DNA of 64,000 nt, taken from NCBI RefSeq assembly GCF_964213995.1, contig NC_135801.1:28706001-28770000 (forward strand), in the 5' to 3' direction. Below, piece by piece: positions 5,550 to 46,684 of this stretch. The translations under genes were made by a program, and so were the position numbers. The notes below the pieces were generated by a model. The model saw nothing but the letters and a program-made list of their open reading frames with translations. It had not been told where the DNA came from and did not search any database. The DNA comes from Mustelus asterias. Its lineage: Eukaryota. The first letter of the stretch is position 1; every line of letters starts with the position of its first letter.

Positions 5550-7052
5550 CTCATAGCAACCAATCACAGCCTTCTCACCGAATGGCCAATCAGGGCCGTG
5601 TAAAGTGAACCAATCAGGGAACCGTAAAACCGTCCCTTCAGCAACCGTTTCCCCCTCCCCCTCACGCGGCCCGCCCCCCGCTCACGCCCCGCTTCCCGCC
5701 CACGGCTCACGCTCCGCCCCCCCTGCGCCTTCACGCCCCGCCCCCCCTGCGCCTTCACGCCCCGCCCCCCCTGCGCCTTCACGCCCCGCCCCCCCTGCGC
5801 CTTCACACCCCGCCCCCCCTGCGCCTTCACACCCCGCCCCCCCTGCGCCTTCACACCCCGCCCCCCCCGCGCCTTCACACCCTGCCCCCCTGCGCCTTCA
5901 CACCCCGCCCCCCCTGCGCCTTCACACCCCGCCCCCCCTGCGCCTTCACACCCCGCCCCCCCTGCGCCTTCACACCCCGCCCCCCCTGCGCCTTCACACC
6001 CCGCCCCCCCTGCGCCTTCACACCCCGCCCCCCCTGCGCCTTCACACCCCGCCCCCCCTGCGCCTTCACACCCCGCCCCCCTCTCACTCCCCGCCCCCCT
6101 CTAACACCCCCGCTGACGCCCCGCCCCGCTCACACACCGCCCCCGCCCCCCCGCTCACGCCACGGCGCGTTCACACTCCGCCCCCCCCCGCTCACACCCC
6201 GCCCCCCCCCCGCTCACACCCCGCCCCCCCCCCGCTCGCACCCCGCCCCCCCCCCGCTCGCACCCCGCCCCCCCTCCGCTCGCACCCCGCCCCCCCCCGC
6301 TCGCACCCCGCCCCCCCCCGCTCGCACCCCGCCCCCCCCCCGCTCGCACCCCGCCCCCCCCCCGCTCGCACCCCGCCCCCCCCCCCGCTCGCACCCCGCC
6401 CCCCCCCCCGCTCGCACCCCGCCCCCCCCCGCTCGCACCCCGCCCCCCCCCCCCTCGCACCCCGCCCCCCCCCGCTCGCACCCCGCCCCCCCCCCCGCTC
6501 GCACCCCGCCCCCCCCCCCGCTCGCACCCCGCCCCCCCCCCCCGCTCGCACCCCGCCCCCCCCCCCGCTCGCACCCCGCCCCCCCCCCGCTCGCACCCCG
6601 CCCCCCCCCCGCTCGCACCCCGCCCCCCCCCGCTCGCACCCCGCCCCCCCCCCGCTCGCACCCCGCCCCCCCCCCGCTCGCACCCCGCCCCCCCCCCGCT
6701 CGCACCCCGCCCCCCCCCGCTCGCACCCCGCCCCCCCCGCTCGCACCCCGCCTCCCCCGCTCGCACCCCGCCCCCAGTCTCCACTCACTCGTCCTCCTCC
6801 CCCGCCCTCTTGCATCCTTCCCCCATCCTACCGTGCGCTCATATCCCGCCCCCTTTCCGCTTGCCCCACCCCCGTCAGCCTCCTGCCCCGCCTGGCGCAT
6901 CCTCCTGTTCCGCTTACCCCGGCCTTCCGAGCCTCCTGCTCCGCCCCGCCGTCCTCCAGCCCCTTCCACGCGCGGTTCGGCGGTGACGCGTTTCCGGCGG
7001 GTTGTTGGCCTGGTGACGGTGAACCACCGCGGTCGGAAGTTTGTGCGGAGCG
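5550..7052 (+). promoter_or_regulatory. CpG-rich promoter and probable non-coding exon 1 of ELMOD2
   Basis: CCAAT at 5560, 5586 and 5610; many GC boxes; ETS-like CGGAAGT at 7034-7040; TGACG half-sites near 6985 and 7014; candidate donors GCG|GTCAGT (7052/7053) and TGT|GTGAGT (7060/7061). The first coding exon has an acceptor only 3 nt before the ATG, so an upstream exon is required. Confidence 0.65.
5700..6776. repeat. C-rich GC-box minisatellite in two zones: 24-bp ccccgcccccctgcgccttcacac (about 5715-6080), then about 20-24-bp ccccgc(c)n-gctcgca (about 6150-6776)
   Basis: Directly visible periodicity; produces the spurious Pro/Gly-rich ORFs. Confidence 0.95.
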
Positions 7053-8371
7053 GTCAGTGTGTGAGTGAAGCGCTGCCTCCCCGGAGCGGTCAGTGTGTGA
7101 GTGAAGCGCTGCCTCCCGGAGCGGTCAGTGTGTGAGTGAAGCGCTGCCTCCCCGGAGCGGTCAGTGTGTGAGTGAAGCGCTGCCTCCCCGGAGGGGTCAG
7201 TGTGTGAGTGAAGCGCTGCCTCCCGGAGCGGTCAGTGTGTGAGTGAAGCGCTGCCACCCCGGAGCGGTCAGTGTGTGAGTGAAGCGCTGCCTCCCCGGAG
7301 CGGTCAGTGTGTGAGTGAAGCGCTGCCTCCCCGGAGCGGTCAGTGTGTGAGTGAAGCGCTGCCTCCCCGGAGCGGTCAGTGTGTGAGTGAAGCGCTGCCT
7401 CCCCGGAGCGGTCAGTGTGTGAGTGAAGCGCTGCCTCCCCGGAGCGGTCAGTGTGTGAGTGAAGCGCTGCCTCCCCGGAGCGGTCAGTGTGTGAGTGAAG
7501 CGCTGCCTCCCCGGAGCGGTCAGTGTGTGAGTGAAGCGCTGCCTCCCCAGAGCGGTCAGTGTGTGAGTGAAGCGCTGCCTCCCCGGAGCGGTCAGTGTGT
7601 GAGTGAAGCGCTGCCTCCCCGGAGCGGTCAGTGTGTGACTGAAGCGCTGCCTCCCCGGAGCGGTCAGTGTGTGAGTGAAGCGCTGCCTCCCCGGAGCGGT
7701 CAGTGTGTGAGTGAAGCGCTGCCTCCCGGAGCGGTCAGTGTGTGTGAGTGAAGCGCTGCCTCCCCGGAGTGGTCAGTGTGTGTGAGTGAAGCGCTGCCTC
7801 CCCGGAGCGGTCAGTGTGTGTGAGTGAAGCGCTGCCTCCCCGGAGCGGTCAGTGTGTGAGTGAAGCGCTGCCTCCCCGGAGCAGTCAGTGTGTGAGTGAA
7901 GCGCTGCCTCCCCGGAGCGGTCAGTGTGTGAGTGAAGCGCTGCCTCCCCGGAGCGGTCAGTGTGTGAGTGAAGTGCTGCCTCCCCGGAGCGGTCAGTGTG
8001 TGTGAGTGAAGCGCTGCCTCCCCGGAGCGGTCCGTGTGAGTGAAGCGCTGCCTCCCTGGAGCGGTCAGTGTGTGTGAGTGAAGCGCTGCCTCCCCGGAGC
8101 GGTCAGTGTGTGTGAGTGAAGCGCTGCCTCCCCGGAGTGGTCAGTGTGTGTGAGTGAAGCGCTGCCTCCCCGGAGCGGTCAGTGTGTGAGTGAAGCGCTG
8201 CCTCCCCGGAGCGGTCAGTGTGTGAGTGAAGCGCTGCCTCCCCGGAGCGGTCAGTGTGTGAGTGAAGCGCTGCCTCCCTGGAGCGGTCAATGTGTGAGTG
8301 AAGCGCTGCCTCCCCGGAGCGGTCAATGTGTGAGTGAAGCGCTGCCTCCCCGGAGCGGTCAGTGTGTGAGT
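7046..8371. repeat. 36-bp minisatellite, left array (about 36 units, cggagcggtcagtgtgtgagtgaagcgctgcctccc)
   Basis: Near-perfect tandem units; translates as repeated RSGQCVSEALPP. Confidence 0.97.
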
Positions 8372-9428
8372 ACCTTCCGGTTGGAGGAAGGTAACTAGTG
8401 GCGTGCCGCAGGGATCGGTACTCGGGCCGCAACTGTTTACCATTTATATAGATGATCTGGAGGAGGGGACGGAGTGTAGGGTAACGAAGTTTGCAGACGA
8501 CACAAAGATAAGTGGAAAAGTGAATCGTGTGGAGGACGGAGAAGATCTGCAGAGAGATTTGGACAGGCTGAGTGAGTGGGCGAGGATATGGCAAATGGAG
8601 TATAACGTTGAGAAATGCGAGGTTATACACTTTGGAGGAAATAATAACAAATGGGATTACTATCTCAATGGAAACAAATTAAAACATGCTACCGTGCAAA
8701 GGGACCTGGGGGTCCTTGTGCATGAGATGCAAAAGCCCAGTCTGCAGGTACAACAGGTGATCAAGAAGGCAAATGGGATGTTGGCCTATATTGCGAGGGG
8801 GATAGAATATAAAAGCAGGGATGTCTTGATGCACCTGTACAGGGCATTGGTGAGGCCGCAGCTGGAATACTGTGTGCAGTATTGGTCCCCTTATATGAGG
8901 AAGGATATATTGGCATTGGAGGGAGTGCAGAGAAGGTTCACCAGGTTGATACCGGAGATGAGGGGTTTGGATTATGAGGAGAGGCTGAGGAGATTGGGTT
9001 TGTACTCGTTGGAGTTTAGAAGGATGAGGGGGGATCTTATGGAGACTTATAAGATAATGCGGGGGCTGGATAGGGTGGAGGCGGAGAGATTCTTTCCACT
9101 TAGTAAGGAAGTTAAAACTAGAGGACACAGCCTCAAAATAAAGGGGGGTCGGTTTAAGACAGAGTTGAGGAGGAACTTCTTCTCCCAGAGGGTGGTGAAT
9201 CTCTGGAATTCTCTGCCCACTGAGGTGGTGGAGGCTACCTCGCTGAATATGTTTAAAGCGCGGATGGATGGATTCCTGATCGGTAAGGGAATTAAGGGTT
9301 ATGGGGATCAGGCGGGTAAGTGGTACTGATCCACGTCAGATCAGCCATGATCTTATTGAATGGCGGGGCAGGCTCGAGGGGCTAGATGGCCTACTCCTGC
9401 TCCTATTTCTTATGTTCTTATGTTCTTA
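8372..9428 (+). mobile_element. Young 5'-truncated CR1 LINE inserted in the minisatellite
   Basis: Uninterrupted RT C-terminal ORF (SGVPQGSVLGP, KFADDTK, ending GKWY* at 9329), CR1-type 3' UTR, (TTCTTATG)n tail; TGAGT at 8367-8371 and 9429-9433 is a possible target-site duplication. Confidence 0.95.
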
Positions 9429-10605
9429 TGAGTGAAGCGCTGCCTCCCCGGAGCGGTCAGTGTGTGTGAGTGAAGCGCTGCCTCCCTGGAGTGGTCAGTG
9501 TGTGTGAGTGATGCGCTGCCTCCCTGGAGTGGTCAGTGTGAGTGAGTAAAGCGCTGCCTCCCCGGAGCGGTCAGTGTGAGTGAAGCGCTGCCTCCCTGGA
9601 GTGGTCAGTGTGAGTGAGTAAAGCGCTGCCTCCCCGGAGCGGTCAGTGTGAGTGAAGCGCTGCCTCCCTGGAGTGGTCAGTGTGTGTGAGTGAAGCGCTG
9701 CCTCCCTGGAGTAGTCAGTGTGTGTGAGTGAAGCGCTGCCTCCCCGGAGCGGTCAGTGTGTGAGTGAAGCGCAGCCTCCCCGGAGTGGTCGGTGTGTGAA
9801 TGAAGCACTGCCTTCCTGGAGTGGTCAGTGTGTGAGTGAAGCGCTGCCTCCCTGGAGCGGTCAATGTGTGAGTGAAGCGCTGCCTCCCCGGAGCGGTCAG
9901 TGTGAGAGTGAAGCGCTGCCTCCCCGGAGTGGTCAGTGTGTGAGTGACGCGCAGCCTCCCCGGAGCGGTCAGTGTGAGAGTGAGGTGCTGCCTCCCCAGA
10001 GCGGTCAGTGTGTGAGTGAGGAGCTGCCTCCCCGGAGTGGTCAGTGTGTGAGTGAAGCGCTGCCTCCCCGGAGTGGTCAGTGTGTGAGTGACGCGCAGCC
10101 TCCCCGGAGCGGTCAGTGTGAGAGTGAGGTGCTGCCTCCCCAGAGCGGTCAGTGTGTGAGTGAGGAGCTGCCTCCCCGGAGTGGTCAGTGTGTGAGTGAA
10201 GCGCTGCCTCCCCGGAGTGGTCGGTGTGTGAGTGAAGCACTGCCTCCCCGGAACGGTCAGTGTGAGAGTGAGGAGCTGTCTCCCCGGAGCGGTCAGTGTG
10301 TGAGTGAAGCGCTGCCTCCCCAGAGTGGTCAGTGTGTGTGTGAAGCGCTGCCTCCCCGGAGCGGTCTGTGTGTGAGTGAAGCGCTGCCTCCCCGGAGCGG
10401 TCAGTGTGTGAGTGAAGCTACCTTCCCGGAGTGGTCAGTGTGTGAGTGAAACGCTGCCTCCCCAAGCGGTCAGTGTGTGAGTGAAGCTACCTTCCCGGAG
10501 TGGTCAGTGTGTGAGTGAAACGCTGCCTCCCCGAGCGGTCAGTGCGTGAGTGAAGCGCTGCCTCCCCGGAGCGGTCAGTGTGTGAGTGAGGAGCTGGCTC
10601 CCCGG
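9429..10605. repeat. 36-bp minisatellite, right array (about 32 more diverged units)
   Basis: Same unit with more variants and a 144-bp higher-order duplication. Confidence 0.96.
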
Positions 10606-22200: not shown

Positions 22201-25200
22201 CATTTTTGTAATTGTTTAAAAAGTTTTATTTTAAAAGATGTGGTGATTAATCATAATGGAAACTTTAACCAACATTCCACATATTTGTCAGGGCCAGATT
22301 GGTTGCTCAGCAGTAGTTATTACTCGCGTCCTATGGACATAACTGATAGACTGGGTCCTTGGCAGGTGGTGAGGGAGCCAACAAGAGGAAAAAGCCCTTA
22401 TCCTCTCCAATCTACCTGTTGCAGATGAATCTATTTATGACAGTATTGATATGAGTGACAACTGCACAGTCCTTGTGGAGACAAAGTCGCATCTTTACAT
22501 TGAGGACCCTCCATCATGTGTAGCACTACCAGTATGTTAAACGGACTAGATTTAAAACTGATCTAGCAACTCAAAAACTGGGTGTCCGTCAATACGTGGG
22601 GTTACAAGGAAAGGGCCTGGGTAAGATGCTCTGTCAGAGAGTCGGTTAATCTAAATCCTGAAGTGACAGTCAGGCACAGGAGGGTAATAACAGTCAACAT
22701 TGGCAAATCACCATCAAAAACCCCACAGATTGCAAGCTGCTCGAAAAAGATGTATCTGATTTTTCTTTTTTCTTTTTCAATTCCAGTTGTGAAATTACTT
22801 GGAGCACTGAGACACAAGATCTTACGTAAAATGGCATTTAAAATTCCTTTATGGATAAATTTTTTTCCTTAGGTTCAAGTTAAATTTACAGACTTGCTTG
22901 CTCCAAATCTCTGGCTTTAAAAAACTCTTTGCTGATATAGAAAACCTACGAAAGCAGCCATTCGATTCTTCGAACAAGCAGCATGAAGATATGCTAAAAA
23001 AGGTACATTAATTGTATTTGATGTCCCACTGTTTACTTGGGCAACCTTGCCTTGCGAGTCTGCAATATTGTAGGGATTTATTTTGCGAAGGTAAAGGATA
23101 AAAATCAGTTGCATTGTTCTTTTCATTATGGCCCAAAATTTGCAGGGGTTTTGATGGTGAACTCCTGGCATTTGTCATCATCATCCCTCTGAATCTGAGC
23201 TCAATTTCAGGATTTAGTGCAACTGAGCTTAATGCAGAGATTCTGAAGTTGTGGGATCTGTCATCATGGGATACCTACTTCTCTCCTGTTTTGCTGAAGT
23301 GAAATAACTTGCTGGGAAGGACATTTCATTTGGAAAGGATATATTGTGCACTGTTCCAAAAATTATTCCACTGGGTTCAAAGCAGAGGATGGAATCATTT
23401 TCCAGGGGTTTTTTTTGCTGGCAATGCACTGATATTAGGCAGCCATTTGAAACAAGTTTTAAGAGAATAATGCGTCATTTATTTTGCGAGTGTTTTTAAA
23501 GGTGAGTGCCATTTGTATTTTTATAATCGTTTTTTCTCCTTATGGGCATAAAAAATCTTGAAATTCTTCTTGGATGAAAAATGGCAACTTTATTCAAGCA
23601 AAGAATCAGTGGAGCATAGGAACAGGAGAAGGCCATTCAGTCTCTTGAGCCCACTCCGCCATTCAATAAGATCATGGCTGATCTGTGGCCTAAATCCTTG
23701 TACCTGCCCTAGGCCCATATCCTTTGGTACCCCTGCTCAGTAAAAAATTGTCTATCTCAGACCTGGTGTGATTGAGCAAATAATTGTCTCTCTGGAACTA
23801 TTCCATTGTCACCCACTTGTCATCAGCCTTGAAACAGAAGCAATTCTCTGTAACCCCTCCATGTTCCTTTAATAATTACAATTTGAGCTAAGAATCTTTT
23901 CAGTTGTAGTTTCCTTGTTCGGTGTATCGTCACATTTGTTATTTACTTCTTTCTTCTGTGACTTTTAGTTGTGGAATTTGCTGATGCCTCATGTGCACCT
24001 GGAGTCGAGAATCACCAAACAATGGGGTGACATTGGGTTTCAAGGTGATGATCCTAAAACTGACTTCAGAGGCATGGGAATGCTGGGGTTACACAATCTA
24101 GTGTAAGTTTTCGTAGAGTATACTCGTAGCCCCAAATATTTTTAACACATCGGTTAAGTAGCATACTGATCTGTAATTTATGTTCTGACATCTATTGAAA
24201 AAATTGCCCTGCTATGGAGTTCTTGCACTCCAAAACATAATTTTTTGGCCTCCGCGTGCAGCTCCATCCACGACGGGCGGCCAGGGAAAGCTGGCGAGAG
24301 GAAGACTGATACCAGTATGTCCACTTCAACAATCACCTGATCTGATTATTTTTACATCTTGGAATCCCTTCTGTTTAAAATCCTTAACTTTTCCTTTCTT
24401 AATATAGCCTCAAGGTTAAACTTCTGTGCACGACAAAACTATGAGTATGGGGGAAGTTAAAATGGGACAGAGTGCAGGGTTTCCCAATTGTGCTGTGCTG
24501 CACTTGCACAGGCCACTTTTAATCCTGGGGTTTTGGGAGGCTTGCGACCTCCACCACAAGCATTCAAGCTAGTAAAATTAGGCCATATGTGTTTCTAAAG
24601 TATCTCGCTATGTAAGGTTCGTGCAGTGAGTTGATATGTTAGAGTACCTTTATCAATCTCCTCATCAAACTTATTTAACGGCAAAAGACTTGATTGGTTG
24701 TGATTTTCTTTTTGTGTGGAGAGGTGCTCCGAGCAAAGCTGAATTGATGGAAATATGCTTTGATGGCAGGGTAGACATTTTGTTCATGAGAGGCCAAGGG
24801 TGACAATTTTTATTGTTAGAATTATTTAGCTTCCTGAATATCTACTATTATTTAAAAGTCCTGGTACGTTGATTGCCTTTGATAAACCTGGGAAAGCAAA
24901 GTTTCGCCTTATTTGTTCTGATTTAAAAAATGTGTTGCAATTGATTTTTCCTAGTGCCGATTGTTTGGAGGTACGAGGTGTTTTGCTCCATAGTGACAGG
25001 CTAAACTCAGATTTTGAATGGCATGTGCACTTTTTAATTTGTTATCGTTAAAACTTTTAGATTCTTTGGAGACCACTACACAGAAACAGCTCGCCAGACT
25101 CTTTCACATTCAACTCACCCCAAGATAGGGTAAGTGAAAGTATATTAAGTTGTTTTTACACCACCACATTCATTTTATAAAGAAAAGACTAACAAAGATA

Positions 25201-28200
25201 TATGTTAACTCTTTGGCCATGATGGCACCTCACTTTCAAAGGAGCAAGAAAGCTCCATCTAAATATCAGCTAAAATATAAAACTAGCAGCACTGATTTCT
25301 TACAAAGCTTTCAGCTGAGCTGTGAGCAAATTTTTGAACAACCTCAATTGTAAAAGCAGATATGATTTTATGAAATCCTGCTTTTCAGTTTGGTTTTAAG
25401 TGGAAGACCAGATGCTGGATGAACTACATTTTTAAAGAAGGAAAAGAATAAAATCTTGAATTACAACTGCCAGTTTAGTCATTGGATGGTCATCAAATTT
25501 GGGGTGTGGATCCTTGCTATAGATTTATCATTCAATTTGGAGGTGATCAGGTCATACTCTAGGTGTCTGGCAATGGGCATTTCCATTTATTCTGATTTAA
25601 TTGTTTTAATTCAATAGACCAAATGAACAGAATAATTCAACTGTTTTCACTAGAACTCTGGGGACAGGAGTTATTAAAGTTGAATTATTTTATCAACCAG
25701 TGTATGTAAACAGAGCCACTAAGGATTGGAGTGGAAACATGATATAAAGTCTCGAATGCATAGGAAATGTGCTAGCAAAATTACGATTAAAAATCTCGTT
25801 TATCATGTAAAATAAAACATAAAAGGTTGACAATGCTTCAGCAGTTCTGGCAATACGTATGGAGAGAGAAACAGAGTTGAGGTTTCAGGCTGTCAGCCTT
25901 TCAACGGAACATCAAAAATCTCTTAATGGTTAGATGGATGTTAGCCCTTTTCAATTTCTACTTTGTCCAGAAAGTGACTTGTGTTAAACTGCTTGTTTCA
26001 AAAATGAAAAATATTTTTCTTTTGTAAGTTTTAGAACATAGTCATGAGATTTAAATCAGTTTGACAGTTAAAGCTACGATACGTTATATTCACGATTCCA
26101 GATATTCCTATGCTATTGTCGGAATAAATCTCACTGAAATGGCTTATAGTATGATGAAGAGTGGCTTACTAAAGACTCATTTCTACAACCTGGTTCCTGG
26201 AGTTCCACAGTTGCAACATTTCCATCAGTTTTATTGTAAGTATTTTAAAATATTTCCTTTCCACAGCTAATGCTTGCTTCTCGTTAGTGCAGAATACATT
26301 CTGTTTGAGAAATTGCTATGATTATTTTCATAGTTATCAATGTCAGATCTCCAATTTCGTATGAACTGTTTGAAATTAAATTATTCCCTGTGGTCAATTT
26401 AAGTCAGCTGTATAAAAAATAATGCCTGACATGAGACTCCCGAAACAAACACTCTGCTCGGAGCTTCGGCATGGGAACCAAGCCTAAGAGGGCAGAGAAA
26501 ATGCTTCAATGCGCTCAAAGCCTCCGTGCAAAAGTGCAACATCCCCACCAACACCAAGGAATTCCTGGCCAAGACCACCCAAAGTGGGGGGGGAGAAGCA
26601 TCTGGGAAGAAGCTGAACATCTCAAGTTCCATCGCTGAGAGCAAGGTGAAACCAAGCATTGACAGTGAAAGCAGCATGTGGCTACCCAGGCCCCTGCCTG
26701 CCCACCCACCCACCCACTTCTCCAACTGCCGTCTGCCCCACCTGTGATGGAGGCTGTAGGTCAGCATTGAATCCTCAGTCACCTCCTCAGTCCTAAGCTC
26801 ATTTTTAGTGTGGAAGCAAGTCATCCTCGACTTTGCAGGACTGCCTTAGAAGATAGAAAATAGTTAATTTCTAGCAATAGTAATTATCTGACAGCTGCAG
26901 CGTATTCCTATCCCCTGTGGTAATATATCGGACTTACTTTTGCAGCGTATCTCTCTATTCCTATGATGACTGACTGCAACATTTCTCTGTCCCTAAAGTG
27001 ATGTATACGACTGAAACACATTCCTTTCATGGTTCACAATACATTTGCCAAATGATACCCCCTCTGATGCTTCAGAATCATGAATTCAAACCTCTCCAGA
27101 GCAGCTGGTGAAATCTAAATTAAATTAATGGATAAATCTGGAATACAATGCAAGTCTCATTAAGAATGGTCAAGAAATTACAAAATTGTCATTAAAATCC
27201 CATCTAGTTCATGAAAGACCTTTATAGAGGAGGAAATCTCCCATCCTTATCTAGCTTGACCTGCATGTGACTCCAGATTCACAGCTACCCTTTGAAATGG
27301 CATAAAACATCACTCAACGGCGTCAAAATGCTACAGTGAAAAGTAAAGCATTGAATACCTACACCTCATGGACTGCAGAGGTTCAAGAAGGTCATCCACC
27401 ACCATCTTCTCAGGGGCAATAAGGAATGGGCAGCAAATGCCGGCCTTGCCAGTGACACTCTTGTGCCAAGAATGAATATTTAAAAAAAGCTTTGATGAAA
27501 GTTTAAAATACATTTTATACTAAAGAACTTTGGCTTGATAGATTAATGAAATACTTCCCTTCAGTCCGCCTACCCATTCTTCAGTCTTTCCACAGCTGAA
27601 GTGAGCATCTGTTCGTCCACAAAAATACAGCAGAAGCAACCTTGCAGATTAGTCATCAACATTAGTTTGCCATAAAGTAAAATCTTTCCCATTGCTGTTT
27701 AGCTATCTATGCCGTTTGAGCTTTGCTATTAAATTAATAGATTATTTTTATTGTATATTATGCAATATGTGCAGTATTTGCATAAATATTATTTGGTGGT
27801 CATTAACCCATTATTAATGAGCATGTTTGTTTATATCTTTTAAATATAGAAAAAGCATTACTTAATGTTTAGTAATATACATTCCTATTGCTCCAACTAT
27901 TTTGGAGACCCTATTGAATCAGATATTTTACTTAAACATAGTACATATGGGCTGATTTTGTGGCATTCCAACCCTGCAGTGGTTTAAAACACCATTTGCT
28001 TATAATACTTTCCAGTATAATTCAGTAAGTAGTGCTTTCAGACAGTTTGCTATATCATAGACACTATATAAATGCAAGTTATTGTTGTAATTTGATGACT
28101 GGCTCAAAATTACATTCTTCTTTTGTTCCCAGTGATAGATCTTGGGCAAAACTTGAATTTCCTTTAAAGCTCTCTCGTATTTTCTTAAACCATTGTTTAA

Positions 28201-28558
28201 TCTGTCCTCTTGTAATTCAAATGTTGAATGCAAATAACACATCTGAACCACAGCACCAGGGAATTGTACAGATTTTTAGGCAGTTAGTTAGGCCTGCAAG
28301 TGAGAACATACAGACTTTTCTTTTGGTCATGGTAAATATACAGGATGGAAGAGAAGCATTGTGATACAGCCAGACTTCATGAATAATAGTTTCCATCTTG
28401 TTTTAGGTTACCTAATGTACGAGTTTGATCAATTCTGGTTTAAGGAGGAGCCATCGAGCATCATGGAATTCAACCTCTACAGAGAACAATTTCATGGAAG
28501 AATAAAACAACTCTTACAAGATCCCAAAACAGGGCTTAAACTGAATTTCAACAAATAG
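16086..28558 (+). CDS. ELMOD2: ELMO domain-containing protein 2 (ARF/ARL GAP), spliced CDS: join(16086..16230,17612..17640,18787..18884,22873..23002,23969..24102,25061..25129,26102..26235,28407..28558), 891 nt, 296 aa
   Basis: All introns are GT-AG and phases are consistent (145+29+98+130+134+69+134+152=891). Translation resembles vertebrate ELMOD2 throughout: WMKWILRKVTGRCELQRI, ELMO GAP motif QWGDIGFQGDDPKTDFRGMG, YSYAIVGINLTEMAY, YLMYEFDQFWFKEEP. Confidence 0.96.
17612..17640 (+). CDS. ELMOD2: ELMOD2 coding exon 2 (29 nt)
   Basis: ttttaatag| (E)YSLESSKNE |gtaagt; restores frame. Confidence 0.92.
18376..18650 (+). mobile_element. SINE, tail type B
   Basis: Similar to 89-388. Confidence 0.85.
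18787..18884 (+). CDS. ELMOD2: ELMOD2 coding exon 3
   Basis: tgttag| VLKAAVTVSEANVANRVRDIMEIKKISIQKDP |gtaagt. Confidence 0.93.
19090..19275. mobile_element. Imperfect palindromic non-autonomous element; related copies near 25810-25910, 42160-42256, 43660-43745 and 52670-52830
   Basis: ctggaaa..ggcagcatctgtggagagag arm and its reverse complement; recurs in the window. Confidence 0.6.
19488..19820 (-). mobile_element. SINE, tail type A
   Basis: Reverse-complement similarity to 2236-2572. Confidence 0.85.
20690..21110 (+). mobile_element. Old CR1 RT fragment
   Basis: Remnant NCRPINLTSVVGKLL..QHGF..DFQK. Confidence 0.7.
21723..22127 (-). mobile_element. CR1 3' fragment
   Basis: CR1-type 3' UTR and C-terminal ORF2 remnant in reverse orientation. 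Confidence 0.75.
22873..23002 (+). CDS. ELMOD2: ELMOD2 coding exon 4
   Basis: ttccttag| FKLNLQTCLLQISGFKKLFADIENLRKQPFDSSNKQHEDMLKK |gtacat. Confidence 0.93.
23969..24102 (+). CDS. ELMOD2: ELMOD2 coding exon 5 (GAP motif)
   Basis: cttttag| LWNLLMPHVHLESRITKQWGDIGFQGDDPKTDFRGMGMLGLHNL |gtaagt. Confidence 0.96.
25061..25129 (+). CDS. ELMOD2: ELMOD2 coding exon 6
   Basis: cttttag| FFGDHYTETARQTLSHSTHPKI |gtaagt. Confidence 0.93.
26102..26235 (+). CDS. ELMOD2: ELMOD2 coding exon 7
   Basis: ttccag| YSYAIVGINLTEMAYSMMKSGLLKTHFYNLVPGVPQLQHFHQFY |gtaagt. Confidence 0.95.
26395..26855 (+). mobile_element. RTE-clade LINE 3' fragment
   Basis: Remnant RGQRKCFNALKASVQKCNIPTN..KW, resembling the RTE ORF C-terminus, plus 3' UTR. 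Confidence 0.6.
27095..27482 (+). mobile_element. Third SINE/LINE-tail family (type C), diverged; related copies near 41440-42095 (-), 50665-50995 (-) and 60455-60800 (+)
   Basis: Shared cccatctggttc.ctaatgtcctttagggaaggaaatctgcc..tgtgactccaga core and gggcaataaatgctggcc tail. Confidence 0.7.
28407..28558 (+). CDS. ELMOD2: ELMOD2 last coding exon
   Basis: ttttag| YLMYEFDQFWFKEEPSSIMEFNLYREQFHGRIKQLLQDPKTGLKLNFNK*. Confidence 0.95.
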
Positions 28559-42700: not shown

Positions 42701-43472
42701 GGCCCTGGGAGATCCTGAAGTCTCTCCTTGAACCTAAACCACATGGCTGAGTTAAACTTGGGGCAACAAGAGAATCTTTAAAGCGAGCAGAACTGATGCA
42801 TTTTATAAACTCTTAATTTCTGTGAAATTCCTTAACTTTGGTCTCCCTTCAAAATAATTAATCAAATCCAAAGATGTGCAGGTTCGATGGATTGGCCATG
42901 CTAAATTGTCTCCTTAGTGTCCAAAAAATGTGCAGGTTAGATGAATTGGCCATGATAAATTACCCCCTTAGTGTCCAAAGATGTGCAGGTTAGGTGAATT
43001 GGCCATGTTAAGTTGCCCCTTAGCGTCCAAAGATGTGCAGGATAGGGGGATTGGCCGTGGTAAATTTACCCTTAATGTCCAAAGATGTGCAGGTTAGGTG
43101 AATTGGCTATGTTAACTAAATTGCCCCAAATGTTGAAAAATGTGCAGGTGGTAAATGTGTGGGGCTAGGTAACATACTCTGTCAGAGTCGGTGCAGATTC
43201 GATGGGCTGAATGGCCGCTTCTGCACTGTAGGGATTCTATGATTCTAAGTGCAAAGAAAATGAGTCTTTAAACCAAACACATACAATTGGTCTTAGAATA
43301 TGCTTTAGAGAGAATAGAAGTGATTATTCTGGGGTGTGTTTGTTACCTGTAATCTGACTTTGGCCGTGTCCAGGGGGAATGTAATAAGATCAGCGAAACA
43401 GGCCGCTGTACCAGCGCTCATGAACCGCACACCAGGCGTTGGGGGAACGCTTGAAGGTTTCAGTCCCACCAT
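36655..43472 (-). CDS. UCP1: Mitochondrial uncoupling protein 1 (SLC25A7), spliced CDS: complement(join(36655..36754,39108..39288,40977..41078,41168..41365,42517..42733,43347..43472)), 924 nt, 307 aa
   Basis: Three carrier signatures ([30 protein letters not shown]); nucleotide-binding Arg motifs [25 protein letters not shown]; six coding exons with GT-AG and consistent phases. UCP1 rather than UCP2/3 is inferred from the known vertebrate ELMOD2-UCP1-TBC1D9 synteny. Confidence 0.92.
37780..38560 (+). mobile_element. Very old CR1 fragment with a younger CR1-type 3' end inserted (about 38180-38400, -)
   Basis: [17 protein letters not shown] remnant; (caaagaa)n tail in reverse. Confidence 0.55.
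39108..39288 (-). CDS. UCP1: UCP1 coding exon 5
   Basis: tgcag| [59 protein letters not shown] |gtaac. Confidence 0.95.
39375..40560 (+). mobile_element. Gypsy/Ty3-like LTR retrotransposon remnant (integrase to PPT) in a UCP1 intron, with a CR1 3' end inserted at about 40219-40403
   Basis: Frameshifted integrase [45 protein letters not shown]; polypurine tract aggggaggagg followed by TG at 40531. Confidence 0.8.
40600..40953. mobile_element. GC-rich interspersed repeat; related copy in opposite orientation at about 63770-64000
   Basis: gacagatcagcgcatgcacagtggcccactcagc matches the reverse complement of 63785-63830. Confidence 0.65.
40977..41078 (-). CDS. UCP1: UCP1 coding exon 4
   Basis: cttacag| [33 protein letters not shown] |gtgggc; follows an 89-bp intron. 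Confidence 0.95.
41168..41365 (-). CDS. UCP1: UCP1 coding exon 3
   Basis: cttag| [65 protein letters not shown] |gtagtg. Confidence 0.95.
41653..41977 (+). mobile_element. SINE, tail type A, nested in a type C element
   Basis: Full head and tail; taatt on both sides. Confidence 0.88.
42517..42733 (-). CDS. UCP1: UCP1 coding exon 2
   Basis: ttag| [72 protein letters not shown] |gtgagt. Confidence 0.95.
42866..43247 (+). repeat. Headless type A SINE with an internal unit of about 53 bp amplified 5-6 times
   Basis: tccaaagatgtgcaggttaggtgaattggccatg..aaatt.cccttagtg starting near 42867, 42920, 42974, 43026, 43077 and 43132, then the normal tail. Confidence 0.85.
43347..43472 (-). CDS. UCP1: UCP1 coding exon 1 (exon begins 43496)
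   Basis: tatttccag| 24 nt UTR, AAGATGG; [42 protein letters not shown] |gtaac. Confidence 0.95.
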
Positions 43473-44370
43473 CTTGAACACAGACTTTGCAAAATGCTGG
43501 AAATAAATAATGCAATCATATTGTTGTCGGTAGCGCTCAGGTGACAATTCTCTTCATTTAGATGATCCGGGTGTTTTGTACATTATTTGCTGGTTATTTT
43601 TTTTAACATTCATGACATTTACCTTGAACCAGACTCTGTCCCATTTCACATTGTACCTTAAGGAGAAGGGTCATATGGACTCGGAACTTTAACTCTCCAC
43701 ATATGCTGCCAAGACATGCTGAGTTTACACTTCGTTTTTATTTCATATTGTACTTGCCATTTTGTTCTATTAGCGCTTATTGAATTTACCACCCTGCCCT
43801 TAAACCCGTGGAGTTCTCCGGCACCGTATTTTCTCAATTGGTAGCCTCTCTAATCCCTCTTTTCCTGAAAGCGTGTATGCTGGAGTCTAGTTCCATTGTC
43901 TCAGGCACTTCCTTCGTACAGTGACTGTAGGCAAGCTATTCAACCAAGGCTATCACTAATACAAGTCTACTTTGGCCTTTGCCAATATCCTCACGTGTAA
44001 ACTTTCTAGCTGGAGCTACTGATTGGATAGAGATCAGAAGCCAATACCCCATGTATTAGCCCCAAATGCAACACTGGCTTAGATCAGCACAGAATGGGGA
44101 TCCGGCCTGACAGGTGGCAGTCCATACCAGACATTCATTCACTTGCTCATTGAATCACCCGCAGTTTATCATTAGCTTCCGTAATCTTTTGCAACGAATT
44201 CTATGTCTACAAGGGCATTTTTGCCCACAAGCTACTTACATTGGTTAAAAAATGACTGGAATTTGGTCTACATCAAAAAGTGCAATAAATACATTGTACA
44301 ATTGTTTAAATCCCAGTGGAAGCTAAAATGAGAAATACCTGACTGTCACATTGAGATTTCTCAACATTAC

Positions 44371-44521
44371 CTTCAGTGAGCTTGTACTGCCTTGCACTGT
44401 TCAGTAACTCTCAGCTCTCCTCTGAGAAATTCTTCTCCCATGTCCTCCTACTGTTCTTGGAATGACCAGGACTTTGCCGTTGCTTAAGTTGTAACAGCTC
44501 AGAGTATTCAGTTCTTTTATA
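44371..44521 (-). promoter_or_regulatory. Candidate UCP1 TATA promoter and non-coding exon 1
   Basis: TATAAAAG at 44521-44514; strong donor GAAG|gtaatg at 44371/44370; the first coding exon has an acceptor at 43497, so an upstream exon is required. Confidence 0.55.
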
Positions 44522-45160
44522 ACCCAGTGATGCAACCAAAATGCAGCCACAGTTGGGCGTTCCCTTATGGGAGGAGTGGACAGGTTGCCTCAACCAGCGC
44601 TATTTGTCTCGGTTTAAACGTTGTGGCACCGTTCCACCAAATACACTGACTAGAAGCTTGGCTGCAAGTTATGATTCTAACCTTCACCTCGTAGAACATT
44701 GACCTCAGTACTCCAGGATATGCCTCCAAAAAAAGAACAGACCTCTAGCAAGAAATACAGCGTGTGATTATGGGGCTGCTACAGTATGACGCACAGAGAT
44801 GAAGATGTTATGATTCATTTTGTCGTTTAGATTACCAATAAACATTTACCGTGGGCACGCTGTTCCTGAGAGTGAGAACCCAAAACAATTTCAATTGCGA
44901 GAACTTGGCAAACGGTCAACATTTTGCAAAAGGTGGAGTGGGGTTTAATTTCTTCCCCCATAGACTTACACAAAGATAGCTGGTTGACTGCAGCCAGGGG
45001 GGGAAATAAACCTCAGCTCTTGCTTTCTCAACAATACCTAATCTTCACATGGCACTAAGAACATTAAGGTGTGTTATCTTAAACATATTTATGGTTTGCC
45101 TGTTTTTTTTTCCAATAGTCAATTATTGGTCTGCAATAAAACATGCCATCTACGTGGAGG

Positions 45161-45454
45161 TTTATTTATTAGTGTCATAAGTCGACCTACATTAACACTG
45201 CAATGAAGTTACTGTGAAAATCCCCTAGTGGCCACATTCCGGTGCCTGTTCAGGTACATGGAGAGAGAATTTAGCATGGCCAATGCACCTAACCAGCACA
45301 TCTTTCAGACTGTGAGAGGAAACCGGAGCACCCGGAGGAAACACGGGGAAAACGTGCAGACTCCGCACAGACAGCGACCCAAGCCTGGAATCGAACCGGG
45401 GTCCCTGGGTGCTGTGAGGCAGCAGTGCTAACGACTGTGCCACCTTGCTGCCCC
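45161..45454 (-). mobile_element. SINE, tail type B
   Basis: Reverse-complement similarity to 89-388. Confidence 0.85.
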
Positions 45455-45689
45455 AAGTTGTCAAAGTCCTCATTTTTTTCTCAAACTAGAATTGCTGCAC
45501 AATCAAGTTGCAACGAGAATAGAACCAAATTGGAAGTCATAAGGAAGAAACGGTGCAAAAGAAATGTGGAGCCCACATTTTCACCATGTGGCATGTTGTG
45601 CACCAGTTTCCTACACTGAGCACTGACTTCAGGGCGATGGGATTGACCGGGGTAACTCCCCCGGTGACTCTGCGTCTCGATCTGATTGT

Positions 45690-45955
45690 TGCCATTCGGG
45701 GGGCTCGAACCGGCAGAGCCAATAGCAATCATGTTCCGAGAGGCCGGCTACAAGATAGCCAATAAGCAAGGGACACTCCGGGAGGCCTGGCCCCAGGACA
45801 GCCAATAGACAGAGGGGACGCGTTGACGCTAACTGGCGTGGAGGTTCAAAGGGCTGGTGGAACAGCTGAGTGATCACCTTTGACATTGCAAACCCTGCTT
45901 TATAGCTACACAAGGGCTCCCCAGCGGGAGCTGAGTTTAGTCAAAGGTTAGATAC
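45690..45955. promoter_or_regulatory. CCAAT / DR1 motif cluster upstream of UCP1
   Basis: CCAAT at 45719, 45759 and 45802; TGACG at 45824; DR1-like GGTTCAAAGGGCT (45843-45855), TCACCTTTGACAT (45874-45886), TAGTCAAAGGTTA (45938-45950); locally CpG-enriched. Confidence 0.5.
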
Positions 45956-46684
45956 ATTTTCTGCGTTTGCATTATTCGATTATGCAACCAAAGCAAAGAC
46001 ACCTAACCATAACCTTGGTGCAATATTGTGTGTAGTCACGAAACGCAACATCTACACGCAAGTATAGATGAAAGTTGGCATATCTGATGTATTAAGCTGT
46101 CTCATTTTGCCGTGACAGATAGATAAAAGATTGCTGAATCGCTTGTTAATTATAATCCTCAACAGATTTACCGCCCTACTCAGTAAAATTACCCAACCAT
46201 AAGTTGAAATTAATTTATTACCGTGCATTACGGTGCCCGAGTAACAGAGAGAACAAGAATTATCTCCAGACCCAGCTCACCAATACGAGGCTTTTCCTGT
46301 GGCTACATTACAGGACAGTTGTTTTTAAAATGTACAGCTGGCGGCACTCTCAAAGGAAATAATTCCATACCCATCTGAAAGAGTATTATAAATTCTAATT
46401 AAAGATATGTGTAATTCAAAATAAAAAAAATCAAGTGCTGAAAATTCATTGACCCTTCGTCAGAACTCGTGATTAATCTCAATATCTTCATTTTAGTTTA
46501 ATTAAAGGGGAACATTCATTGTCACTTTTCCTCATTCAGGCTGGATTTAAGTTACACTTTTGGGGAATTCAAAACATTCTTAGAAAAGTCAAAGTCTTTG
46601 TGTCTATATGAGCTTACCTTTCAGATGACCAGTAAGCATTAAATGCAAAATTAGTCTCCAGCAAAGACCAATAGTCCATCAATC

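Follow-up and report, generated by a model that had tools for sequence, protein, structure and literature searches.

The window analysed here spans 64,000 nucleotides of the genome of the shark Mustelus asterias (contig NC_135801.1, positions 28,706,001 to 28,770,000 of the forward strand), and positions given below refer to it unless another sequence is named. Its UCP gene (Table 1) has coding exons of 126, 217, 198, 102, 181 and 100 nt with carrier domain PF00153, and its product is identical to record P0121, named UCP1. In a midpoint-rooted tree of 38 UCP rows, built without mammalian or teleost UCP1, 11 rows form a UCP1 clade with shark, chimaera, coelacanth and lungfish UCP1 records at a support of 100/99. 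ELMOD2-like exons at 23969-28558 on the plus strand (ELMO_CED12 exons at 23969-24127 and 25995-26255) stand tail to tail with UCP1, and two GRAM-domain exons lie on the minus strand about 135 kb past the window, upstream of UCP1; from these two matches we infer that the latter gene is TBC1D9. This is the ELMOD2-UCP1-TBC1D9 order given in PMC3428666 (papers cited by PMC number are represented here by the parts of their text that were available). By tree and synteny the gene is thus identified as UCP1, as the original prediction had it. Two bullhead shark records named UCP2-like are UCP1-like in sequence, P0126 falling inside the UCP1 clade and P0016 in its cluster, and both are likely misnamed. 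Under the label Vibrio harveyi, record P0184 gives a UCP1 sequence of fish type, probably through host contamination. Elsewhere the window holds long G+C-rich tandem arrays (5557-10450) with a LINE-like reverse-transcriptase fragment between them (8370-9329). The intron after exon 2 contains a short tandem array of ~40-nt units beside a SINE-like piece (43110-42870, read by eye).

Table 1. Features of the shark UCP1 locus and of the predicted leader of a paralogue (window positions unless prefixed).
Feature	Position	Strand	Remarks
TATA box TATAAAAG	44521-44514	-	sole TATAWAWR between 46100 and 43400 on this strand
Non-coding leader exon 1, ~120 nt	44371..44490	-	3' end as in spliced contigs; 5' end predicted
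Presumed HNF4-like motif CAAAGTCC	44476-44469	-	rejected as a conserved element
Putative uORF, 22 codons, 69-nt ORF	44373..44441	-	TGA at 44375-44373; from sequence
5'-UTR intron, 874 nt, GT..AG	43497..44370	-	skipped in contigs of X1, X3 and X4
Exon 2	43347..43496	-	last 24 leader nt, then 126 nt of coding sequence
UCP1 coding region, six exons, intact, 307 aa	36655..43472	-	
UCP1 coding exons	43472-43347, 42733-42517, 41365-41168, 41078-40977, 39288-39108, 36754-36655	-	
Predicted UCP3-like leader	G000:C10:104982790-104985285	+	TATA 104982790, donor 104982931, acceptor 104985230

Upstream of the coding region the original prediction had placed a TATA box, a leader exon with an upstream open reading frame (uORF), a splice donor, an acceptor and the main ATG, and all of these were found in their predicted positions when re-read from the sequence. 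The donor GT at 44370 lies two bases past the uORF TGA, and the acceptor CAG precedes 43496. The upstream AUG (uAUG) at 44441 has the strong context GACATGG (G-3, G+4), and the main ATG at 43472 has A-3 and G+4. The 5' end of the exon was set by TATA spacing at a CA 31 nt past the TATA box. In the resulting spliced leader of about 144-145 nt the uAUG is the only AUG, 95 nt upstream of the main ATG; the uORF is read in a different frame from UCP1, and computation returned the 26 nt that had been claimed between its stop and the main ATG. The segment 44340-44720 has a single match genome-wide. Rfam gave 0 matches across 43300-46200.

Use of the leader exon was assessed in transcript-like contigs from four runs, none recorded as RNA, compared over 43300-45200: X1 (organism A, study P1) and X3 and X4 (both organism B, study P2), all three from relatives, and X7, which has the organism label of the runs that contain the region in full. 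For the window's own organism no RNA run was listed. Contigs that skip exactly the predicted intron occur in three of the four runs, covering two organisms and two studies, with junction depths of 665 (X1), 76 (X3) and 40 (X4) and with 116-152 letters on the shorter side of the junction. The junction is absent from X7, whose patchy cover includes neither splice site. Since the loose ends of the X1 and X3 contigs run on into exon 3, matching at 29 of 30 letters as judged by eye, these contigs represent spliced transcripts. The predicted splice from 44371 to 43496, for which the original prediction had called for a transcript check, is therefore present in relatives, which establishes both exon and junction as real.

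We infer from the TATA spacing that transcription starts near 44490. Contigs cannot show start sites; their 5' ends lie at 44486 in X4, at 44509 in X3, and beyond 45200 in X1, which is colinear from the donor outward, so that a second leader exon is not seen in it. Because the contigs of X1, X3 and X4 all include the uAUG together with sequence upstream of 44441, some transcripts at least carry the uAUG. X1 is the only spliced contig that covers the TATA box, and no difference is listed there. Beyond the TATA box it continues for 680 nt or more and takes in 12 further ATGs of the window's sequence. Farther upstream, a G+C-rich block at 45960-45640 on the minus strand has raised CpG, ATTGG (reverse CCAAT) at 45806, 45763 and 45723 and TATAAA at 45904, and might serve UCP1 as an upstream promoter or an enhancer. 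It also contains what we take to be DR1-like motifs.

The 8-mer CAAAGTCC within the leader exon, presumably an HNF4-like motif, had also been put forward. The sequence stands where it was placed, but its frequency is at chance level (five exact copies on both strands of the window), and X1, X3 and X4 all differ at 44473, so that the site reads CAATGTCC in both relatives; this change rules it out as a conserved element. The same substitution creates a second uAUG in the relatives only, opening an 8-codon uORF (44474-44448, minus strand) that ends 6 nt before the 22-codon uORF. Since the relatives have this additional uAUG, the AUG content of the leader is labile.

The occurrence of an uAUG was compared with chance expectation in two ways. 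When the 145-nt leader was shuffled 20,000 times with its dinucleotides preserved, 78% of the shuffles contained an ATG and 14% an ATG in strong context; the corresponding values for 2,202 stretches of the same length from the window are 89% and 29%. The shark uAUG thus exceeds chance only weakly. In X1, X3 and X4 no change is listed in the uAUG and the exon is free of indels, but at 5-9% divergence chance alone would leave a triplet intact with a probability of 0.76-0.85. Conservation in codons 1-21 of the uORF is somewhat higher than in the preceding part of the leader: organism B has 0/63 differences against 6/68 (p 0.028) and organism A 1/63 against 7/69 (p 0.064), two contrasts that are not independent because the organisms share most differences. 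The one change listed within the uORF of organism A, at 44419, is non-synonymous. X3 and X4 carry two mismatches apiece beyond those listed (8 versus 6, and 5 versus 3), and the simplest place for them would be the last six bases of the exon, where the uORF stop sits. When these two are added, the comparison becomes 2/69 against 6/68 (p 0.17) and the conservation signal is gone. Only 37 of 135 double changes in those six bases retain a stop; without it the frame is computed to run for 35 codons and to overlap the main AUG.

For a more distant comparison we read the sea bass UCP loci by eye from supplement 1 of PMC3428666, with exon ends predicted from sequence. The ATG of sea bass UCP1 (minus strand) is at 8679, with an acceptor 11 nt (or 5 nt) upstream of it; together with a strong donor at 8897 and a TATA box at 9035 this defines a predicted exon of ~108 nt with a single uAUG at 8982. 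The uORF opened there is 22 codons long, in frame with the main ATG and separated from it by 27 nt (or 21 nt). The layouts are therefore close, 22 codons and 27 nt in sea bass versus 22 codons and 26 nt in the shark, with the uAUG 96 versus 95 nt upstream. A match to within 1 codon and 3 nt arises in 0.6% of random 119-nt leaders, and one to within 3 codons and 10 nt in 4%, tolerances that were picked after the match had been seen; 19% have a uORF of at least 15 codons that ends within 50 nt. The context of the sea bass uAUG is weak at -3. Conservation of the peptide itself is not indicated: compared by eye, the shark and the predicted sea bass peptides have 3 of 22 residues in common, the listed change in organism A alters a residue, and the shark peptide has no Pfam match.

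The other two shark paralogues lie on G000:C10. One groups with shark UCP2, and the second, which the tree leaves unresolved, is called UCP3-like by position; UCP2 (minus strand, ATG 104924179) and the UCP3-like gene (plus strand, ATG 104985285) stand head to head 61 kb apart within G000:C10:104912551-105011712, unlike sea bass UCP2 and UCP3, which are in tandem (PMC3428666). All three shark genes have an acceptor shortly before the ATG, at 24 nt in UCP1, 104 nt in UCP2 and 55 nt in the UCP3-like gene. The predicted UCP3-like leader (Table 1) has one weak-context uAUG, which opens a frame of 30 codons with its stop 14 nt before the ATG and in the same frame. No likeness was found between the UCP1 and predicted UCP3-like leaders or peptides, for which 678 and 429 of 1000 shuffles reach the observed scores, and the UCP1 leader, acceptor flank and CCAAT block have no non-coding match in 120 kb around UCP2 and the UCP3-like gene. 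Leader exons of shark UCP2 were not found, also in a relaxed scan. A 152-nt candidate with a 36-codon uORF (G000:C10:104959269-104959118) was discarded as a repeat with 97% copies elsewhere on C10 and at window 38410-38208. None of the eight candidate rows of the relaxed scan was accepted: five are mostly repeats, one is half masked, and the remaining two represent one exon with weak acceptors. In trout, zebrafish, mouse and human, UCP2 has two non-coding exons, the second of 145-162 nt in trout, zebrafish and mammals (PMC1559616); in sea bass UCP2 we read by eye a 154-nt exon with a 35-codon uORF whose stop lies ~115 nt before the ATG. Marsupial UCP1 has its TATA box 260-280 nt from the ATG (PMC5611445), in line with the contrast to mammalian UCP1 drawn in the original prediction, and a non-coding first exon appears to be missing from mammalian UCP1. 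A leader intron is thus common to all three paralogues; given this and the position of the marsupial TATA box, the ancestor of UCP1/2/3 probably had such an intron, which mammalian UCP1 would have lost.

Gene models of other species bear on the same region: those with N-terminal extensions break off at an acceptor shortly before the UCP1 ATG. The catshark models P0012 and P0123 diverge at the point matching 43496, and one catshark model uses the end of the homologous leader exon in the main frame, with 4 of 7 codons identical. The chimaera models P0128 and P0130 diverge 36 nt before the ATG. The N-terminus of P0012 matches, at 11 of 18 residues, the translation of window 44699-44645 (minus strand), a non-coding stretch that lies some 150 nt beyond the TATA box and is conserved in the catshark. 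An extended protein was rejected as its explanation in favor of a predictor's join of this promoter sequence to the end of the leader exon. N-terminal extensions occur in 20 of 261 UCP records; in UCP1 records the first Met is scattered from 17 to 69 codons upstream, and the frog record P0161, with its first Met 31 codons (93 nt) upstream, gives a weak hint only.

We propose, at somewhat better than even confidence, that the strong-context 22-codon uORF in the non-coding first exon of shark UCP1 is a translational brake that lowers UCP1 output. With transcription starting near 44490, scanning ribosomes would reach the uAUG ~49 nt from the cap. Many would initiate there and terminate 26 nt before the main AUG, a gap too short for efficient re-initiation, and most UCP1 would consequently come from leaky scanning. 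The effect would depend on the position of the uORF and not on its peptide, and termination upstream of all six junctions could in addition feed nonsense-mediated decay. In vertebrates a better context and a shorter distance to the coding sequence go with stronger repression by uORFs, which are depleted within ~100 nt of the coding sequence and repress by ~30% on average (PMC4890304). A broader form of the proposal would make the fish UCP1 uORF an ancient brake conserved in position, of ~22 codons and reaching from ~95 to ~26 nt before the start, that was kept from sharks to teleosts and lost in mammals together with the leader intron, which would have opened the way to the very high UCP1 content of brown fat; this we consider unlikely.

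A rather unlikely but weightier alternative is that the leader exon is real and the uAUG incidental, a tolerated and weakly selected feature of little regulatory meaning. The high base rate of ATGs in such leaders, in strong context as well as in any, is what this reading would predict, and the second uAUG of the relatives, which this genome lacks, the stop that may be lost in them and the peptide without a family match fit it too. It sits less well with the likeness of the sea bass uORF in length and gap, and with the selection that acts in vertebrate leaders against strong uAUG contexts and against positions within 100 nt of the coding sequence (PMC4890304). Choice of start site could also decide the matter if some transcripts begin upstream of the uAUG, possibly at 45960-45640, or downstream of it, in which case the 22-codon uORF would not be controlling. 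The reach of the X1 contig from the junction beyond 45200, the X3 end upstream of the predicted start and the promoter-like motifs and raised CpG of the upstream block point that way; we hold it very improbable, as X4 ends 4 nt from the TATA-predicted start and deep runs lengthen contigs through rare upstream reads, X1 itself containing intron sequence at a depth of 11 versus 665.

It is also conceivable, though we think it quite improbable, that the UCP1 uORF is homologous to that of mammalian UCP2, both deriving from one UCP1/2/3 element responsive to stress or glutamine. The acceptors of all three shark paralogues, the uORF of the predicted UCP3-like leader and the sea bass UCP2 exon, which has the size of UCP2 exon 2, speak for such an element. 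Against it stand the different layout of UCP2, with two leader exons, 35-36 codons and in sea bass a gap of ~115 nt, and the alignment of UCP1 and UCP3-like leaders and peptides no better than shuffles. Furthermore, cutting the UCP2 uORF from 36 to 18 codons abolishes its eIF4G2 dependence.

A literature search that was thin on subscription journals yielded no paper describing either a leader exon or a uORF for UCP1 outside mammals. Neither is mentioned for non-mammalian UCP1 in the available parts of PMC2584656, PMC3064598, PMC12272785 and PMC10690280, and the text searched of zebrafish leader datasets has no ucp1 entry. Work on the origin of UCP1 thermogenesis in mammals has dealt with the enhancer and the coding sequence (PMC5611445). 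If non-mammalian UCP1 does have a conserved uORF, this would add a translational layer to the evolution of UCP1, and mRNA levels would overstate UCP1 protein in fish, as is the case for UCP2. The leader exon may well be present already in public gene models; should the uAUG be incidental, it is an ordinary 5'-UTR exon that those models probably include.

Leaders of the ATF4 type have two uORFs. The relatives resemble them in that an 8-codon uORF comes first; with its stop lost, the longer frame behind it would extend to 35 codons and into the main ORF. They differ in having only 6 nt between the two frames, and the first uORF is absent from this genome. With vertebrate uORFs in general, that of shark UCP1 shares a short ATG-to-stop frame in the leader and a peptide without family match, whereas most of those uORFs have poor contexts (~17% beat the median context of coding sequences) and avoid the last 100 nt (PMC4890304), and the shark uORF is strong and close. 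Like mammalian UCP1, the shark gene has the ELMOD2-UCP1-TBC1D9 order, six coding exons and a promoter with a TATA box (PMC5611445); mammalian UCP1 has its ATG in exon 1, while the shark gene has the leader intron. The closest parallel is mammalian UCP2, a member of the same gene family with a 36-codon uORF (Hurtaud 2006, as cited in PMC6071544, PMC4383229 and PMC8789081; also PMC11660649) that is relieved by glutamine and confers resistance to eIF2-alpha phosphorylation (PMC6071544, PMC11660649, PMC4383229). Common to both are a uORF in a non-coding leader exon, a strong uAUG context and a main ORF probably reached by leaky scanning. The shark uORF differs in having 22 codons in a sole leader exon instead of ~36 in the second of two, and a gap of 26 nt to the main AUG instead of the ~115 nt read by eye in sea bass UCP2. 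Without implying descent from the UCP2 uORF, the shark UCP1 uORF would, on sequence grounds, work as that of UCP2 does.
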